This document shows, piece after piece, positions 4,338 through 11,259 of a DNA stretch of 64,000 bases. The notes under the pieces are model-generated. The model had not been told where the DNA came from. It did no database searches and was given only the letters and a program-made list of their open reading frames with translations. The stretch is from an uncultured Candidatus Saccharibacteria bacterium (lineage in GTDB: Bacteria > Patescibacteriota > Saccharimonadia > Saccharimonadales > 2-12-FULL-41-12): positions 132,149-196,148 of the forward strand of contig CAZFPJ010000001.1 of NCBI GenBank assembly GCA_964521095.1, written 5' to 3'. Numbering within the stretch: position 1 is the first letter of the stretch; every line of letters begins with the position of its first letter. The position numbers and the translations under genes were made by a program.

Positions 4338-5637
4338 GTCGATTTATGTCGCGTGGGAACAGGGTGGCTTCTTTGACATTGTTTAGGCCAATTATCTTTT
4401 GGGTTAGGCGCTCTAGGCCCATGCCAAAACCACCGTGTGGAGGCAAACCGTACTTAAATGCTTGCAGATAATACTTAAAGCCCTCGGCTTCTGGATCGCC
4501 CTTGGCTATGGTTTTGAGCTGTTCTAGCAGTACAGAGTAACGGTGTTCACGCATACTAATGGTAGCTATCTCGACACCCCGAAAGATCAGGTCTGCTCGT
4601 TCGGCAAGTTCGGGGTTTTCCTCGGATTTTTTGTGATAAAACTTCATCTCGCTAGCTGGCCAATCCACCACAAACACTGCTTCACTACCGTATTTTTTGG
4701 CTGAGTAGTCAGTTATCCAGCGCTCTTCGTCTGGCCTTAGGTCTTTTTCGCCCTTGGTGTCTGTGCCGGTTGCTTTGGTGTACAGCTCGTGGATCTCCTC
4801 CAGGCTCATGCGAGGAATCGTATCAGGCAACAATACCGGCTTGGCGCGTAGGCTCTCTAGCTCTGCTATTTTATCTTGCCACACGCTTACACAAACAGAC
4901 TTCAAAAGCCCCTCTACAGTGTCCAACAAGCCGTCAAAGTCAACAAAGCCCATCTCGGCATCGATATGAATAAACTCCGTCATGTGCCGAGTTGTAGCAC
5001 TCAGCTCTGCCCGATAAGTTGGGTTAATCTCATAAGCTCGCTCAAACACGCCAACCATAATCTGCTTATAAAACTGTGCACTCTGGGCCAGCGTTGCCTC
5101 TTTGCCAAAATAATCTAGCTTAAACACCTCTGCGCCACCTTCGGTAGCTTCTGGCAAAAGCTTGGGCGAGTTAAACTCTGTAAAGTCCTGCGCATGAAAA
5201 TACTGCCTAGCAGACTCTTTTACGCTAGCTTGTACCTTAAAAATGTTGGTTTCTAACACATTTCGCAGGCCAATCACTCGGTACTCAAACAAAGTGTCCA
5301 GGTTTTCAGACTTGTGGTTGAGCGGTTTGTCTATCTCTATTGGTGGCTCGTCGGTAACGGGCACCAAGACTTCTATGACTGGTTCATGTACTTCCACTCC
5401 ACCAGGAGCACGGTCGTCTTTGGTGACTGTACCTTTTATTCGCAACACCGTGCCAATCTGCAGGCCACGAAGTTTTTCTACTTCGTCTTTGTCTTTAATC
5501 AGTATCTGGGCCAGGCCACTACGATCTCGCAAATTAATAAAAGTCAGCCCACCAAGCAACCGCTTTTTATGCAGCCAACCTTCTATAACTACAGGTTTAT
5601 CAATGTGTTCGGGTAATTGTTTTGTCAAAATTCTCAT
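4327..5637 (-). CDS. aspartyl/asparaginyl-tRNA synthetase (class IIb)
   Basis: 436 aa with an N-terminal OB anticodon-binding fold and class II motifs (FRGVEIATISMREHRY, GLPPHGGFGMGLERL). It cannot be assigned to AsnRS versus archaeal-type AspRS from sequence alone. Confidence 0.75.
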   Translation of the reverse strand: MRILTKQLPEHIDKPVVIEGWLHKKRLLGGLTFINLRDRSGLAQILIKDKDEVEKLRGLQIGTVLRIKGTVTKDDRAPGGVEVHEPVIEVLVPVTDEPPIEIDKPLNHKSENLDTLFEYRVIGLRNVLETNIFKVQASVKESARQYFHAQDFTEFNSPKLLPEATEGGAEVFKLDYFGKEATLAQSAQFYKQIMVGVFERAYEINPTYRAELSATTRHMTEFIHIDAEMGFVDFDGLLDTVEGLLKSVCVSVWQDKIAELESLRAKPVLLPDTIPRMSLEEIHELYTKATGTDTKGEKDLRPDEERWITDYSAKKYGSEAVFVVDWPASEMKFYHKKSEENPELAERADLIFRGVEIATISMREHRYSVLLEQLKTIAKGDPEAEGFKYYLQAFKYGLPPHGGFGMGLERLTQKIIGLNNVKEATLFPRDINRLTP

Positions 5638-5739
5638 GTATTAGCCTTATTATACAATTAAAAAATCATAATTAACAGATAAAGCCGTGCTATGACTATT
5701 AACTTTATTAATCGAGCAAAAATTGCTACACTTAATCAG

Positions 5740-7407
5740 CTATTTACGGTAAAAATAATTATCGATAATGGGATGTGGCCAAGTGGTAAGGCACCTGGTT
5801 TTGGTCCAGGCATTCGGGGGTTCGAATCCCTCCATCCCAGCCATTTTCAGGAAAAGTTTGGAATTGTCGCTCTCACGAGCGATTTTTTCATTTGTAGATT
5901 TCAATTCTTGCCACAGGCAAAAACCGCTTTCCGCCCCCTTTCGGAAAGCGGTTTTTGAGCCAGCCCCGACAGCTTTTTTATCGCCAACGGCGATGAGGGT
6001 TTTACCTCGCATTGCGAGGTTCGAGCCAAAGATTTCCGACAAAACGGCTTTTTGTCCGTTGTAATCGTTGGTATCAACGATTTTACAGATAGATTGTGCG
6101 GTTTCCAGCCAATTTCGCATAGGTTCTAACCAAGAATTTTGGTTAGCTTGTAGATTAGCCAAACTTTCCTCTAAACTTTTCTTTTCGCTCAAAATCTCCG
6201 ATTTTTTCGCCAAAAAAGTTTGGCGGTCAATGTCTTGGTCTAAATAACTGTCTAGCAAAATCTTTTGTTTGCTGTTGAGCCGGGCAATCTCGTCTTTTAG
6301 ATTTGCTACGGCGGACACGTTGTCCGCATTTTCGGCTTGCTCGTCCTCTGCCATTTTATTGGTCATAAAATTATACACTTTTTCAGACATGGCATAGTCG
6401 CTGAGCAGCGCCGAAATCTGCGGTAACAAATCTTTTTCACGAATTGCTGGCTCAACGCATTTAATGGCTTTGTTTTTGCGAGAGCAGCGATAATACGTCC
6501 AACTATGTATGTTGCCGTTTGCCTGCGTTTTGGTTTTTGTTTCGGCTGTTATTGCCATACCGCAACAAGCACAGCGTAGAACGCCTAAAAACGGAATTGG
6601 TTGCTTGGTTTGCGGTTTCTGGTGTCCTCGCTGGTCAATAACCACTTGGACTTTGTCCCATAGCGACTTTGACACGATCGGCTCGTGCCGACCCTCGTGG
6701 AGTTCGCCGTTATAGATAAAATGTCCGTAGTAAAAAGGGTTTTGTAAAATGCTTTTTACTTTGTCGTCCTTAAATAATTTTCCGCCACTGGTAATTGCTC
6801 TGTTTTCTTGTAAAAAATCGGCTATATCTGCCATTGTTTTATCGCCACCAGCGTATAGCTCAAACATTTGTTTCACAAGTGGTGAATACCGCTTGTCTAG
6901 AATAATTGTTTTTATGCGAGTGTCATTTAGGTAGCCGAACGGAGCGATAGACGGAAAATCACCGTTGCGGACTTTTGCCCTTAAACCTCGCTTGGCGTTT
7001 TCGCTCAAATTATCTACATAATACTTGGACTGACCAAACATAATAGACAACATAAACTTACCTTGACTGGTGTTCTCAAACTGGAAAATTGGAAAACGCA
7101 GATAATTGAGCGATGTTTGGTCTAACAAATAGATAATTTGTCCGCCGTCAATGGAGTTGCGAGCCAAGCGGTCGGGGTGCCACGCCAAAATGCCGTTGGC
7201 TTCGCCATTTTCAATTCTTTTAATCATAGAATTGAAAATTGGTCGTCCTGGATTTTTGGCGGTGCGTTTTTCTATAAATTCGTCAATAACCATTAAATGA
7301 TTATCTCTCGCAAACTTGCGGAGTTCCGCAAGTTGAGCGTCAATGCTCAAAACCTGCTTATCTTCCGTATCGGTACTTTTGCGAGCATACAAGATATATT
7401 TTTCCAT
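5740..7407 (-). CDS. large serine recombinase (resolvase/integrase family)
   Basis: The N-terminus MEKYILYARKSTD...QLAELRKFA is a resolvase catalytic domain with the nucleophile Ser in YARKST. It is followed by a recombinase domain, a Cys-x2-Cys...C zinc ribbon and a long coiled coil. A strong RBS (AAGGGGG) precedes the ATG at 7407. There is no stop in the unique DNA; the last ~84 codons run through the inverted repeat and antisense of tRNA-Gln. Confidence 0.85.
   Translation of the reverse strand: MEKYILYARKSTDTEDKQVLSIDAQLAELRKFARDNHLMVIDEFIEKRTAKNPGRPIFNSMIKRIENGEANGILAWHPDRLARNSIDGGQIIYLLDQTSLNYLRFPIFQFENTSQGKFMLSIMFGQSKYYVDNLSENAKRGLRAKVRNGDFPSIAPFGYLNDTRIKTIILDKRYSPLVKQMFELYAGGDKTMADIADFLQENRAITSGGKLFKDDKVKSILQNPFYYGHFIYNGELHEGRHEPIVSKSLWDKVQVVIDQRGHQKPQTKQPIPFLGVLRCACCGMAITAETKTKTQANGNIHSWTYYRCSRKNKAIKCVEPAIREKDLLPQISALLSDYAMSEKVYNFMTNKMAEDEQAENADNVSAVANLKDEIARLNSKQKILLDSYLDQDIDRQTFLAKKSEILSEKKSLEESLANLQANQNSWLEPMRNWLETAQSICKIVDTNDYNGQKAVLSEIFGSNLAMRGKTLIAVGDKKAVGAGSKTAFRKGAESGFCLWQELKSTNEKIARESDNSKLFLKMAGMEGFEPPNAWTKTRCLTTWPHPIIDNYFYRK
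5769..5843 (+). tRNA. tRNA-Gln (anticodon TTG)
   Basis: 75-nt cloverleaf with U1:A72, acceptor TGGGATG/CATCCCA, a GCC/GGC D-stem like E. coli tRNA-Gln, anticodon loop TTTTGGT (anticodon TTG), T-loop TTCGAAT and a 3' GCCA. Confidence 0.8.
5841..6003. repeat. inverted repeat A (left copy), 163 bp, perfect reverse complement of 7566-7728
   Basis: Checked base by base: RC(5841-6003) is identical to 7566-7728. It starts at the CCA of tRNA-Gln. Confidence 0.9.
5920..5957. terminator. bidirectional rho-independent terminator inside inverted repeat A
   Basis: Perfect 14-bp stem AAAACCGCTTTCCG/CGGAAAGCGGTTTT with an 8-nt loop, flanked by an A-run on one side and a T-run on the other. It lies downstream of tRNA-Gln. 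Confidence 0.6.
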
Positions 7408-7442
7408 TTTTACCCCCTTAAAACTTAAAAAGCCGACCTGGT

Positions 7443-7522
7443 GCAACACAATTCAGATAAACTAAACTGTTCCAAGTCGGCTTTTTAAGCCAAGAAAAAA
7501 GTTTATCTATAAATTGTGTTGC
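7443..7522. promoter_or_regulatory. palindromic element upstream of the recombinase start
   Basis: GCAACACAATT-CAGATAAACT ... AGTTTATCTA-TAAATTGTGTTGC is a ~21-bp imperfect inverted repeat with ~40 bp spacing. It lies in the 5' region of the recombinase gene and is a candidate operator or accessory site. Confidence 0.35.
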
Positions 7523-7565
7523 CCTTTTATTATACGACTTTTGCTCGGTTTTGCGTTAGCAAAAC

Positions 7566-7728
7566 AAAACCCTCATCGCCGTTGGCGATAAAAAAGCTGT
7601 CGGGGCTGGCTCAAAAACCGCTTTCCGAAAGGGGGCGGAAAGCGGTTTTTGCCTGTGGCAAGAATTGAAATCTACAAATGAAAAAATCGCTCGTGAGAGC
7701 GACAATTCCAAACTTTTCCTGAAAATGG
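7566..7728. repeat. inverted repeat A' (right copy)
   Basis: Reverse complement of 5841-6003 (163/163). Confidence 0.9.
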
Positions 7729-7847
7729 CTCACTTATACGAGTTTGCCCGAACCTATTTTGCGACCAAATGCGAGAAATGAGATTTTCGGCGGGTCGGGT
7801 CGGGGGCGACCCGCCGAACTGCTTCACAGATTTTTTGTCCACCTGAA
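7729..7847. repeat. inverted repeat B (left copy), ~119 bp, reverse complement of 8833-8951
   Basis: RC(8833-8951) matches 7727-7845 with no mismatch seen. It is contiguous with repeat A'. Confidence 0.85.
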
Positions 7848-7859
7848 TTTCATTAAATA

Positions 7860-8387
7860 TTGTATAATTTACTCATGAATAAAAGTCATCAACAAGCAAA
7901 ACGACTAACCACGAAAGATGTACAGCGTATGTCTAATGATGAGATCATCAAGTATGTATATCTTGAGCATAAAAGATTGAAAATGCCCGTTGAAGATGTC
8001 TGGGAACAACTTATTGATAATTTTGGAAAGCAAACTATAAGCGATATGCTCGGCGGCAGCGAAGATTCCTTGAATAGTACTGAAAATTTTGACGGTGATT
8101 CAAAATTCGGAGCGATAATTATGGTCTATGCTATTGTTTTTGGGATTATTTGGTTCATTTTTAACAGTCTTATGAATAATAAGTTTGAAGCAATGCAATT
8201 TGCTATCGTTGTTTGTGGTATCGCATCAACCTTAATCACCATATTGTTCATGAATGCTACCGGTAAAAATGAGAGAAATTATCTAAATGCTGTAAGTAAA
8301 ATACAAAGAGCCTACTCCGTATATATAAACAAAGGCTTCAACGATCTAATGGGTAGACCATTAGACTATGTAAAAGATGACAACTAG
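7860..8387 (+). CDS. hypothetical membrane protein (two predicted TM helices)
   Basis: 175 aa with a hydrophilic N-terminal ~90 aa followed by two hydrophobic helices (IIMVYAIVFGIIWFIF and FAIVVCGIASTLITILF). It overlaps the next ORF by 11 nt. Confidence 0.4.
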   Translation: MYNLLMNKSHQQAKRLTTKDVQRMSNDEIIKYVYLEHKRLKMPVEDVWEQLIDNFGKQTISDMLGGSEDSLNSTENFDGDSKFGAIIMVYAIVFGIIWFIFNSLMNNKFEAMQFAIVVCGIASTLITILFMNATGKNERNYLNAVSKIQRAYSVYINKGFNDLMGRPLDYVKDDN

Positions 8388-8829
8388 GCATTATCCGTCA
8401 TTCGTCAATGACAAAACAGATGAAGATAAGCTAGCAAACATAATAGTCAGCACATCTTTGCTAGATGAGGTTTTGTCCCTGTGGCTAACTAATCATTTTT
8501 TGAAGATTGATGGCACAAAAAAGAACGAGAATGATAGAGATATTCTTGAGAAGTTAATTTTAAGCAAATTAGGTTTTAGGCAGAAAAGCGAAGTGGTCTG
8601 TAAATTGCTGAATAGCAATTCTAGCCCAGTAAAATTGAAATCAAATTTATTTAGAATTGGCGAGATAAGAAATCAAATAGCTCATAATACTGGTTGGCTC
8701 GGAATACCTAATAACATAAAAGAAGTCTACAGCGAGTTTGATGGGTTAATGGTAGAGCTAGAAAGCTTTATAGAACTAACTTATTCTGAGTTTCAGCATG
8801 ACATGGATCATGCATATAATCCCCAATAG
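8377..8829 (+). CDS. hypothetical protein with an HEPN-like R-x4-H motif (candidate toxin/abortive-infection effector)
   Basis: 150 aa, predicted mostly alpha-helical, with GEIRNQIAHN (R-x4-H) in the C-terminal half. It appears co-operonic with the upstream membrane protein and both lie between the perfect inverted repeats B/B'. Confidence 0.3.
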   Translation: MTTRHYPSFVNDKTDEDKLANIIVSTSLLDEVLSLWLTNHFLKIDGTKKNENDRDILEKLILSKLGFRQKSEVVCKLLNSNSSPVKLKSNLFRIGEIRNQIAHNTGWLGIPNNIKEVYSEFDGLMVELESFIELTYSEFQHDMDHAYNPQ

Positions 8830-8832
8830 AAA

Positions 8833-8951
8833 CAGGTGGACAAAAAATCTGTGAAGCAGTTCGGCGGGTCGCCCCCGACCCGACCCGCCGAAAATCTCAT
8901 TTCTCGCATTTGGTCGCAAAATAGGTTCGGGCAAACTCGTATAAGTGAGCC
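8833..8951. repeat. inverted repeat B' (right copy)
   Basis: Reverse complement of repeat B. It ends in GTGAGCCA, giving AGCCA at 8948-8952. Confidence 0.85.
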
Positions 8952-8996
8952 AAGTATCGTTTTGAATTCCAAAGGTCAAGAAGGGAAACTACAGCC

Positions 8997-10022
8997 ATGT
9001 CGAAAAAACTAAAATGCCCAAAATGCCACAGTAAATACAAGAAGATAGTTGTTCAAATTGTAGACGACAGGACTATGGCCGTTTGCCAAAATTGCGGGGA
9101 CACATTTGATGTAACTGACAGGAACCAACCAGAAAGCCAGTTGCGACGGGATAAACATACAGTTCAGAAGGATAAAAACATAACCAATCGAGAAAGGATT
9201 GTGGCCTTCTCGAAAACATCCTTTGGAATTATATTGAGTTTCGTCTTATTTCCGCCATTGGGTGCAATATTGTGGTTCAGATACAAAGCAAAGCCAAACA
9301 AAAAAACCAAAGCCCTCGTGTCTAGTGTTGTCTTTATATTCTGGATAGTACTAATTGCCTCAGCTCAAAGTGGTTACAAGGCTAGTTTCGATATAGATGG
9401 AAATAAAGTAGAAATTTCATGTTCAAAATTATGTTCGCGTTTTGACAGCTATGGTGACAAAGATACCTTAAGGCATCTCGCTATCCTGGGTGTAACGAGT
9501 GTAGACTCAATGCCAAGCGACAGAAACGGAGACAGTGTTGACCTAACGGTTGATAAAGGGGCCAAGGGAGGTATTGGTTTAAGATTGAATTATAAAGATA
9601 ATAAATTAATAAGTATTGTAAATATTGAACATCCCACTATCATCTACTACTCTACCGATCAAACGATAAAGACACAAGACTACCCTAGCAGTGATGAGAT
9701 TATTAGGCTAAGATCCGAGATTGACAAGAAAAAAGCCCAGGAAGAACAATCCAGAAAAGAAGCAGAGGCAAGAGTGCCGTCTGACACAGACACCAGTGAA
9801 CTCTGCAAAAAACAGTTCAACCAGGATTATCCGTACAAGGGCAGTAAAGTTCATTCTATAATGGGAGTAATAGCAAATAATAAACGCTTTGATGACTCTC
9901 GCTTTTATAAAGTTGAGGTGACTATAGAAAATGCTTACGGCGCCAGCAGAAAATCTGTTATGGAATGTACAGTTCAAAAGTCTGGTGACAGCCTTCAGAT
10001 AACATCATTCTTTGTGTACTAA
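8997..10022 (+). CDS. hypothetical zinc-ribbon/transmembrane protein
   Basis: 341 aa. The N-terminus has CPKCHS...CQNCGD (a C-x2-C...C-x2-C ribbon), followed by two TM helices and an uncharacterised ~200 aa C-terminal domain. Confidence 0.4.
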   Translation: MSKKLKCPKCHSKYKKIVVQIVDDRTMAVCQNCGDTFDVTDRNQPESQLRRDKHTVQKDKNITNRERIVAFSKTSFGIILSFVLFPPLGAILWFRYKAKPNKKTKALVSSVVFIFWIVLIASAQSGYKASFDIDGNKVEISCSKLCSRFDSYGDKDTLRHLAILGVTSVDSMPSDRNGDSVDLTVDKGAKGGIGLRLNYKDNKLISIVNIEHPTIIYYSTDQTIKTQDYPSSDEIIRLRSEIDKKKAQEEQSRKEAEARVPSDTDTSELCKKQFNQDYPYKGSKVHSIMGVIANNKRFDDSRFYKVEVTIENAYGASRKSVMECTVQKSGDSLQITSFFVY

Positions 10023-10140
10023 ATATACTTCAACCTTGAGTGCGCATTCGGGGTGAGAACTGCCGGTGGCAGTTCGCAAGGAAACCTTCCGATGAAAGCT
10101 ATGCTTTCAATAGCGAAGTTTCGGGCCTGCCGAAGGTAGG

Positions 10141-10162
10141 TCGAATCCCTCCATCCCAGCCA
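10141..10162 (+). repeat. direct repeat of the tRNA-Gln 3' end (att-like island boundary)
   Basis: 22/22 match to 5822-5843. There is no 5' half of a tRNA upstream of it. Confidence 0.75.
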
Positions 10163-10419
10163 GTATTTTCCTCAAAGCCCTTGTGGGCACCAAGCCATAG
10201 CTAAGGATACTTACTCTGTGAGTGTTACCGTAAGTATTTTGATTAGAATCACAGGGTTAATAAAGCTATACTTAAGTTAATGAGCAAAGCATGGACAGAA
10301 TAGCTAACTACCCAAAATATGCTCGTCAGTTTTGTGGATCAACTAGAAAACTCCCAACAGCGCGCTAGAAAATCCTGCCCATAGGCTATAATAAAAGCAT
10401 AAGTAGAGTTTTTGTATTT

Positions 10420-11259
10420 ATGCAGGTTATAGAGCCAAAGAAAAGACCAAAAAGCAAAAGATCGATCGGTAAGCCGTTTTATGTGCTGGCCTTTGTCGCA
10501 ATTATTGGGGCAGGGGGTTACCTGGGCTACACAAAGCTACCTAGCGAAAAAACTCCTGAAAAGAGCCAAACTGTGCAGAATAATGCAGTTGTGCAGTCGC
10601 CACCAAAACAAGGAGTTTTAAAGACTTATACGGGTGAGGAGTTTAAAAACCTTTATAACTCTATTGCCTACCCAAATACCCGCGAAATTAGCGAAGAAAC
10701 ACCGATAACCGGCAACCCTGATGCCGATGCGCATATCCGTAAACTTGCCGTAGCCAGGGGGTATTTACCAAGAAGCGCACCAGTATCGGACACCTTTGTT
10801 AGCGTAGACCGTGTCCACAAACTGCAAGAGCGGGCTTCTCAGCCCTGGCTGGATATGAGGCAAACAGCCCGGAACGAGGGCTACATGCTGGGGCTAACTG
10901 CCGGATACCGCTCGGCGGACGACCAAAAAACAATCTTTTTGAACCGTCTTGCGGGGTTAAGCCCTGTAATGATTGCCAATGGAGCTGGCGATGTGCAGAT
11001 AAACCAAGTACTGCGCTCTACCGCATTGCCGGGCTATTCGAGACACCATACAGGCTATACCATTGATATCGCTTGCGAAAACGACCCATACCCCGTCTTT
11101 GAAAAATCCAAATGCTTTACCTGGCTGTCTGCCAATAACTACGAAAATGCCAAAAAATTTGGCTGGATACCTAGCTATCCTGATGGCGCTGGCCCACAGG
11201 GGCCCGACCCAGAGTCTTGGGAGTATGTTTGGGTAGGGAAGGATATACTGACAAAATGA
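10420..11259 (+). CDS. D-alanyl-D-alanine carboxypeptidase (VanY/peptidase M15B-like), membrane anchored
   Basis: It has an N-terminal TM segment, and GYSRHHTGYTIDIA matches the VanY S-x-H-x-x-G-x-A-x-D zinc site. Confidence 0.6.
   Translation: MQVIEPKKRPKSKRSIGKPFYVLAFVAIIGAGGYLGYTKLPSEKTPEKSQTVQNNAVVQSPPKQGVLKTYTGEEFKNLYNSIAYPNTREISEETPITGNPDADAHIRKLAVARGYLPRSAPVSDTFVSVDRVHKLQERASQPWLDMRQTARNEGYMLGLTAGYRSADDQKTIFLNRLAGLSPVMIANGAGDVQINQVLRSTALPGYSRHHTGYTIDIACENDPYPVFEKSKCFTWLSANNYENAKKFGWIPSYPDGAGPQGPDPESWEYVWVGKDILTK

Follow-up and report, generated by a model that had tools for sequence, protein, structure and literature searches.

A large serine recombinase gene of a Candidatus Saccharibacteria bacterium runs across its attachment site and ends antisense to a tRNA-Gln gene

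A 64,000-nucleotide stretch from an uncultured Candidatus Saccharibacteria bacterium (assembly GCA_964521095.1, contig CAZFPJ010000001.1, positions 132,149 to 196,148 of the forward strand; hereafter the window, numbered from its first letter) contains a recombinase gene, two pairs of inverted repeats and a tRNA-Gln gene that overlap one another. In the list of open reading frames (ORFs) of the window, the recombinase was the minus-strand ORF 5740..7449, 569 amino acids from a GTG; the ATG at 7407 is the likely start and gives a protein of 555 amino acids. The protein is a large serine recombinase (LSR) with the domain set of the serine integrases. The Pfam families Resolvase (PF00239), Recombinase (PF07508) and Zn_ribbon_recom (PF13408), all above their cut-offs, spanned residues 5-333, phmmer matched the SPbeta and A118 integrases, and the AlphaFold2 model of the B-type protein P0008 (described below) placed long helices after the zinc ribbon (342-445), which fit the coiled-coil insertion of LSRs. 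Directly upstream of the start codon, at 7425-7484, was an inverted repeat (AAAAAGCCGAC...GTCGGCTTTTT) that could be an operator or attenuator.

The solved LSR structures (SPbeta, A118) could be aligned to the protein only to residue ~446, and its canonical fold closed at ...EIFGSNLAMRGKTL (...GKTL). No stop codon was found in the unique DNA. Instead, the frame entered an inverted repeat at the K of GKTL (codon 469), ran through 55 codons inside the repeat arm (K469-A523), continued for 32 codons (GMEGFEPPNAWTKTRCLTTWPHPIIDNYFYRK) antisense through the whole of tRNA-Gln (5769-5843), and reached a stop at 5740-5742, 27 nt past the 5' end of the tRNA gene. An earlier note on this DNA had described a recombinase without a stop in unique DNA whose conserved fold ends with ...GKTL at the repeat boundary, and the coordinates of the ORF, the repeat and tRNA-Gln bore out both statements. 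Its account of an open frame through the repeat and the antisense tRNA also held, and its repeat length of 163 bp had to be corrected to 165 nt. The note had further judged so long an open frame mildly improbable by chance. In agreement, only 159 of 20,000 mononucleotide shuffles of the 261-nt tail (0.8%) were free of stops in the window alone, and the related loci described below were nearly all open in the same frame.

The repeat that receives the frame (I1, with arms x and x') was 100% complementary over its 165 nt. A second perfect inverted repeat of 120 nt (I2, with arms y and y') abutted the first and flanked two small ORFs. Each repeat arm was present in exactly two copies in the 64 kb, which ruled out a generic dispersed repeat. 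A single pentanucleotide, AGCCA (TGGCT in the opposite strand), formed the overlap of the arms both with one another and with the tRNA gene. In tRNA-Gln it comprises the final base of the acceptor stem, the discriminator base and the CCA. The order was tRNA-AGCCA, x, recombinase, x', TGGCT, y, cargo, y', AGCCA, host, so that AGCCA was common to the three junctions bounding the element (tRNA/x, x'/y and y'/host). The tRNA/x junction can be read as attL, the y'/host junction as attR, and the x'/y junction (y'/x on the other strand) as an intact attP, and the crossover would have to fall within the AGCCA core. The window probably carries a 3.1-kb integrative element (5844-8952) that was put in at the CCA end of tRNA-Gln by its own LSR. 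Such an element would have attP twice, in inverted orientation. Integration would have split one copy into attL and attR, the other would lie intact between the recombinase segment and the cargo segment, and each segment would be flanked by perfect inverted repeats because of these two copies.

The same arrangement was found in relatives. All 18 relatives that had both repeat pairs showed the same overlap with the tRNA end, with a shared core of 4-6 nt (NCCA), and in these 18 loci attL and the internal attP shared their right side while the internal attP and attR shared their left side. The host side of attR in eight of the 18 was, by eye, a hairpin followed by a T-run, as expected for a displaced native tRNA terminator; the host flank of attR in the window was not a hairpin (8953-8992). 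In Rfam scans, both of the whole window and of 5600-10500, two tRNAs were the only matches, and the repeats and 10040-10162 gave none.

When the frame was read from x' into y, it gave a different C-terminus: ...KMA followed directly by HLYEFARTYFATKCEK, that is ...KMAHLYEFARTYFATKCEK-stop, where a GC hairpin (7786-7818) lay behind the stop (7779-7781). This is the alternative ending (...KLFLKMAHLYEFARTYFATKCEK) that the earlier note had correctly predicted from the second copy of the repeat. Reading through the internal attP gave an ending of the form V-x-[LFI]-Y-[ND]-x-[AVI]-R-T-[YH]-F in 56 of 79 elements, and in 52 of the 54 unique sequences the distance from the R to the stop of this native ending was 6-10 codons. 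Both endings were present among database proteins: 89 of the 120 best homologs ended in antisense-tRNA peptides and 12 in the ...Y.FARTYF... peptide. Two pairs of proteins were 100% identical up to the junction and differed only past it, P0025 and P0017 over 519 amino acids and P0112 and P0041 over 386. The earlier note had suggested that the C-terminus may depend on the orientation of the element, and these endings and pairs show that it does depend on the element's configuration. The tRNA-antisense ending is the rewritten form, and the ending read through the second repeat copy is the conserved native form.

The recombinase gene is built across attP, and integration beside the 3' end of the gene swaps its last 16 codons for antisense tRNA. 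The stop is absent from the unique DNA because the gene extends across the attachment site of its element. Past ...GKTL, about 55 codons would overlie the P' arm, the frame would cross the 5-nt core, and the last 16 codons with the stop would lie on the P arm. In what is called here the B-type state, the gene would be complete, either in the excised circle or facing the internal attP, and would end ...MAHLYEFARTYFATKCEK-stop. In the A-type state, which is that of the window, integration via the site next to the 3' end of the gene would have put the antisense tRNA reading in place of the native ending. The features of the element are listed in Table 1.

Table 1. Features of the putative element and its tRNA target in the window (I1 and I2, first and second inverted repeat; a full point stands where no strand is assigned)
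Feature	Coordinates	Strand	Remarks and basis
Recombinase ORF as in window (A-type, 555 aa)	5740..7407	-	LSR core 1-468, x-encoded tail 469-523, antisense-tRNA peptide 524-555
tRNA-Gln (UUG), encoded CCA	5769..5843	+	Putative integration target and B arm of attL, intact after integration; ARAGORN; Rfam tRNA 65.6 bits, full length
Putative attL core AGCCA	5839..5843	.	Common to tRNA and x arm; I1 arm overlaps tRNA end by 5 nt
x arm, P' side of putative attachment site	5839..6003	-	Hairpin block; encodes codons 469-523 antisense to hairpins; I1
Intrinsic-terminator-like hairpin GTCGCTC-TCAC-GAGCGAT + T6	5866..5889	+	22 nt past tRNA end; terminator scan
Symmetric hairpin A5-CCGCTTTCCG-loop-CGGAAAGCGG-T5	5919..5956	.	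Terminator-like on both strands; encodes KTAFRKGAESGF; self-complementary match
Second terminator-like hairpin, tRNA sense	5975..5999	+	Terminator scan
R segment, unique DNA between x arms	6004..7565	-	Recombinase core and upstream region; same layout in ~98 loci
x' arm, second inverted copy of x	7566..7730	+	Joined to y, forming putative intact internal attP; att-site alignment; I1
Core of putative internal attP (TGGCT, reverse complement of AGCCA)	7726..7730	.	Common to x' and y; I1/I2 arms overlap 5 nt
y arm (P side)	7726..7845	+	Native last 16 codons (7731-7778), stop and GC hairpin; I2
Cargo segment	7846..8832	+	ORFs 7860-8387 and 8377-8829
y' arm, P arm of putative attR	8833..8952	-	Core AGCCA at 8948-8952; putative T-arm mimic GGTTCG at 8924-8929; I2
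B' side of putative attR	8953..8992	+	Host DNA formerly after tRNA-Gln; inferred from position past y' arm and core, as in attR of relatives

The 120 best homologs were 53-93% identical to the recombinase, were mostly 530-570 amino acids long and covered 95-100% of the query. In an alignment of 30 homologs all ran through the tail, none ending at ...GKTL, and then diverged into GFEPP, GLEPS, GIEPA and similar peptides, which are the antisense T-loops of different tRNAs. A total of 151 loci with relatives were fetched from genomes and metagenomes; nearly all were from the Candidate Phyla Radiation (CPR, or Patescibacteria), including Saccharibacteria, Nomurabacteria, Magasanikbacteria, Paceibacteria and others. 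The stop could be determined for 114 homologous ORFs, and 90 of them ended inside an antisense tRNA gene, with 27 isoacceptors represented. An inverted repeat of 80-220 nt flanked the recombinase gene in ~98 loci, most arms being 95-100% identical and one arm abutting the tRNA end. Where the available flank sufficed, a second, abutting repeat pair was often found around 1-5 kb of cargo, and the 18 relatives mentioned above are the loci of this kind that were analysed.

Some family members departed from the common length or arrangement. Longer proteins were found (P0056 and P0057, 705 amino acids; P0074-P0078 and P0090, 876-932 amino acids), two of them with extra helix-turn-helix domains and several with ~350 additional residues. 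In several loci the frame was open through two consecutive antisense tRNA genes (L017 7520-7680, L072 1734-1905 and L001 7553-7733).

Analysis of the tail across loci indicated that the open frame is not an accident of the window. Ninety loci were chosen regardless of frame, the sole criterion being an antisense tRNA that follows the FGSNL motif at a distance of 30-400 nt, and their tails were 78-234 nt long. The tail was free of stops in frame 0 in 88 of the 90, and in the other two frames in 22 and 29. Summed over the loci there were 4 stops in frame 0, as against 135 and 110 in the other two frames and 69-115 in the reverse-strand frames. Tail length modulo 3 was constant (1) in 73 of the 90 loci, and in-frame indels were visible in the protein alignment of homologs. 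Where the two x arms of an element had diverged to less than 90% identity, the gene-attached arm was open in 13 of 13 cases and the free arm was open and in frame in only 5 of 13, with stops in 5 of the free arms and frame-shifting length differences in 8. Since gene-attached arms are open and free arms decay, the frame is kept open through its attachment to the gene. Sequence comparison of this kind shows that the tail frame is under selection to stay open.

An AlphaFold2 model was made of one B-type protein, P0008, from a 45-sequence alignment (mean predicted local distance difference test score, pLDDT, 74). It contained a low-confidence, disordered linker over the hairpin-encoded stretch (477-492) and then two helices, 493-511 and 515-538, with block-mean pLDDT of ~65-87 and 69 over the last nine residues; the second of these helices spanned the junction. 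The tail and the C-terminal helix are taken, with moderate confidence, to be translated and of importance.

The tail DNA was also strongly structured, with a median z-score of -2.8 for minimum free energy. A terminator-like hairpin in the tRNA sense was found in 44% of 85 relatives, with a median start 22 nt past the tRNA, and in 2.8% of shuffles. This per-sequence scan with shuffled controls was used in place of a consensus fold; an RNAalifold consensus of the first hairpin in 26 relatives was weak (-1.34 kcal/mol), MAFFT having misaligned the stems. The first of the three hairpins in the x arm of the window (Table 1) is a likely replacement terminator for tRNA-Gln. The peptide encoded by the symmetric hairpin had a pLDDT below 50. 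By integrating, the element would displace the terminator of the tRNA gene and supply replacements in x, on which the recombinase frame would be overprinted in antisense. The DNA of the tail is constrained mainly as DNA or RNA.

Comparison of the other half of the attachment site with the tRNA targets revealed a possible basis for site recognition. The P arm had the consensus AAAATaNGTTCgAGC, followed by 18 nt to the core. Measured from the core, its GTTC lay further out than the GTTC in the T-loop of the target tRNA, and the difference was exactly 4 nt in all 37 measurable elements. In the integrase of the Listeria phage (LI), the motif bound by the zinc-ribbon domain lies 5 bp nearer the centre in attB than in attP, which underlies directionality (PMC3783163). 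The P arm of this family (GGTTCGAGC) looks like a mimic of the tRNA T-arm with attP-type spacing, and such a mimic would be a simple possible reason for the movement of the family among many tRNAs. The bases of the P-arm motif also encode the A-R-T of the C-terminal peptide, and constraint at the DNA level and at the protein level is inseparable there because the same bases serve both. In the codons for ...ARTYF..., Ala was nearly always GCT, Tyr was nearly always TAC and several third positions were fixed. Purely protein-level conservation was rejected as the sole explanation of this peptide, since its bases are those of the GGTTCGAGC motif and third positions are fixed.

Evidence for excision came from a relative at a tRNA-Leu gene. 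L152 is an integrated element on a 1.3-Mb contig. L153 consisted of L152 7399-8560 (the 3' part of the recombinase gene and the outer x arm, 99.8% identity) joined to L152 4737-6303 (the outer y' arm and cargo, 99.9%) with an 8-nt overlap, and it matched the outer arms of L152, the inner arms being only ~94% identical. The shorter L154 had the same make-up; L153 and L154 each came from a different sample than L152. The L153 junction is the attL x attR product, a circle or formally a tandem array, and carries a B-type gene.

The earlier note had considered inversion of the module. The repeat is a duplicated attachment site, the P' arm plus the core, and not merely an inversion site; the inversion considered in the note stands as a second route. 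An explanation in which the repeats are primarily inversion sites, with the recombinase inverting its own gene like Hin or Gin so as to toggle its C-terminus or its expression and with integration as mere history, is rather unlikely. It would account for the perfect 165-nt inverted repeats around the gene and for the concerted evolution of the arms, which in most cases were 95-100% identical within an element and ~83-89% identical between close relatives. Among the close relatives of the window element, x and y arms were shared at ~83-89% identity and the two copies within an element were 94-100% identical. In L081 and L082 the recombinase faced the cargo and host-like DNA lay beyond y', which fits an integrated isomer with a flipped recombinase segment. 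Among relatives at 84-88% identity, the gene faced the tRNA in the window and in L083 and faced the cargo in L081 and L082, these being separate loci and not one population. However, the arms are attachment-site halves that share their core with the tRNA end, an excision junction is present in a relative, and the 27 tRNA isoacceptor targets require integration. The enzyme is of the large serine integrase type and not a small invertase, and homologous recombination between 165-nt repeats could equally flip the segment. Self-flipping is compatible with integration and excision as a second activity of the enzyme: the main alternation is between integrated and excised forms, and flipping of the recombinase segment, which may take place at an appreciable rate, is the second route. 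The length of x, which covers the whole tail and the terminators, is as expected if both orientations of the recombinase segment must work.

It is highly improbable that the arrangement is an assembly artefact, in which the collapse of a repeat, or a chimeric joining of the integrated with the excised form, would have brought together inverted repeats and a stop-less ORF that are not in one molecule. The arms in the window are 100% identical, and many related contigs break at or near the arms, as such an artefact would have it. However, independent assemblies gave the two-repeat layout in ~98 loci, some of them on contigs of 0.6-1.3 Mb; the arms were only 82-97% identical in several loci, which is incompatible with collapse; and where both ends of a unique segment join the same side of a repeat, the structure is that of a true inverted repeat and not of a mixture of attL and attP.

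Several observations weigh against a functional, integration-rewritten C-terminus as part of a mobile element. The ratio of nonsynonymous to synonymous divergence (dN/dS) was ~0.5-0.8 in the tail and 0.07-0.17 in the core, which indicates weak constraint on the amino acids of the tail; synonymous divergence was lower in the tail than in the core; and codon-position entropy was nearly flat in the tail (1.48, 1.40 and 1.55 for the three positions, as against 0.88, 0.65 and 1.46 in the core). Much of the peptide conservation coincided with hairpins, A/T runs and the P-arm GGTTCGAGC motif, and ...ARTYF... may be conserved mainly as DNA. The symmetric hairpin with its T5 could end recombinase transcripts before any stop codon. 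No empty attB, with tRNA-Gln joined directly to 8953 onwards, was found among 156 fetched loci. The circle junction of L153 could also come from a tandem array.

The weak amino-acid constraint, the flat codon periodicity, the mapping of conserved motifs onto hairpins and DNA motifs and the ending of the solved LSR structures before the tail would all be expected if the read-through had no meaning, that is, if the functional protein ended near GKTL or were not made, the tail being a by-product of the repeat and its hairpins, or if the gene were disabled by integration as in the SSV-type integrases. This explanation is improbable. The near absence of stops from frame 0 over 90 diverged loci, the in-frame indels and the constant length modulo 3 speak against it, as do the decay of free arms and never of gene-attached arms and the fixed position of the stop after the core. 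The recombinase core was under strong purifying selection even when fused to an antisense tRNA. A recombinase gene that extends across attP and is rewritten by integration is the reading followed here.

What the two forms of the enzyme would do can be suggested only by analogy with Mx8, BPs and SSV, the systems compared below. A-type and B-type proteins may, speculatively, differ in activity, stability or directionality. Equally speculative are the ideas that the A-type transcript, as a non-stop RNA or an RNA antisense to the tRNA, holds down the amount of enzyme, and that the two attP copies hedge between locked and mobile integrants. Joined into one model, these features would form a built-in state switch that needs no additional factor. 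Integration would rewrite the enzyme by giving it an antisense-tRNA peptide for its native last helix, with an mRNA that might be non-stop or paired with antisense RNA; the inverted attP would restore the native enzyme by flipping, or would allow integration without loss of the native ending; and a difference between the two forms in directionality, activity or stability would do the work of a directionality factor. With the T-arm mimic, this would explain the spread of a 3-kb one-gene vehicle to at least 27 tRNA targets in CPR bacteria. The model as a whole is tentative and rather unlikely to be right.

The cargo segment of the window had a GC content of 0.337, compared to 0.44 for the window, and its two ORFs overlapped by 11 nt. 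The first (175 amino acids) had no matches, and the second (150 amino acids) was weakly HEPN-like (RiboL-PSP / CARF-HEPN) in PADLOC and Pfam searches; the two may be a toxin or defence pair. Serine integrases require a separate directionality factor for excision; no conserved extra gene and no recombination directionality factor was evident in the 3-kb element. The cargo differed among close relatives, which carried an HD/CYTH protein (L083), an MFS transporter (L081) or a methyltransferase (L082). In L156 and L155, whose proteins are the pair P0025 and P0017 named above, the recombinase gene and x arm were 99.8% identical at the DNA level, the y arm was only ~91% identical and the cargo was different, and therefore modules have been exchanged at the core. 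Some relatives (L013 1250-7518, L111 6449-8807, L025 6052-9492 and L001 1649-3467) had either an array of at least three modules that abut one another and have inverted repeats at their borders, or another recombinase element close by, which suggests that modules accrete at one tRNA.

Outside the element, an exact 22-nt copy of the 3' end of tRNA-Gln was found at 10141-10162, ending in AGCCA, 1.2 kb beyond attR. The interval between them (8953-10140) contained one ORF, 8997-10022, 341 amino acids, with weak zinc-ribbon matches, and the 100 nt before the 22-nt copy had no Rfam match. The copy is assigned to a separate, older event and may be what is left of an earlier island at this tRNA.

These results extend to the large serine recombinases the principle that an integrase gene can contain its attachment site and that integration then rewrites the enzyme. 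They also point to an apparently abundant, undescribed class of minimal cargo-carrying elements in CPR/Patescibacteria, whose mobile DNA is little known. The family is a natural series of integrases retargeted to 27 tRNA 3' ends, and its readable attP/attB pairs are a resource for genome engineering. In annotation, an overlap with a tRNA gene is no reason to trim ORFs of this family or to flag them as pseudogenes. A full-text search, with incomplete coverage of the literature, returned no paper on this architecture in CPR bacteria, or on Patescibacteria or the Candidate Phyla Radiation together with large serine recombinases.

Among known systems, the window recombinase is like the phage serine integrases (A118/LI, SPbeta, phiC31, Bxb1) in its domain set, in its simple sites with a short core and in an outer motif that lies nearer the centre in attB. 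It differs from them in a shift of 4 nt instead of 5 bp, in the use of the 3' end of a tRNA gene as attB and in a P arm that imitates the T-arm, and also in that the gene overlaps attP, attP is duplicated in inverted orientation and no directionality factor is evident. Unlike Hin, Gin and Cin, which are ~190 amino acids long with a C-terminal helix-turn-helix, short sites and an enhancer, the enzyme has 539-555 amino acids, recombinase and zinc-ribbon domains and 120-165-nt repeats made of attachment-site arms. Joining of a constant gene part to alternative 3' ends by DNA rearrangement is familiar from the G segment of Mu with Gin, the R64 shufflon and intragenic invertons. In Mu and R64 the recombinase acts on tail fibre or pilus genes, whereas here the rewritten gene is that of the recombinase itself and one of the endings comes from a host tRNA gene.

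Other parallels are systems in which attP lies inside a gene. In the integrase of myxophage Mx8 (IntP/IntX), attP is inside the integrase coding sequence, and integration creates a new 3' end and alters the properties of the enzyme (PMC6070905). The window gene similarly crosses its core 16 codons before the stop; unlike Mx8, a phage with a tyrosine recombinase, it encodes the LSR of a 3-kb element, acquires an antisense-tRNA ending and has a second, inverted attP able to restore the native ending. The SSV-type suicidal integrases of archaeal elements have a recombination site within the integrase ORF, tRNA genes as targets and integration that splits the gene (PMC7253208). Those enzymes are tyrosine recombinases whose gene is split into two inactive parts, whereas the window element exchanges no more than the last 16 of 539 codons and its recombinase core is under strong purifying selection. 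With its serine chemistry, the window recombinase is a functional analogue, and not a member, of the tyrosine integrases with attP in the gene. Mycobacteriophage BPs has attP inside a coding sequence such that the viral and prophage proteins differ in their C-termini, which sets stability (PMC3694055); there the rewritten gene is a repressor and removal of a degradation tag has been demonstrated, whereas here it is a recombinase. The principle of attP inside the integrase gene was thus already known for tyrosine recombinases. New, as far as can be told, are its occurrence in an LSR, the fusion to antisense tRNA, terminators overprinted by the reading frame, an attP duplicated in inverted orientation and the mimic of the T-arm.

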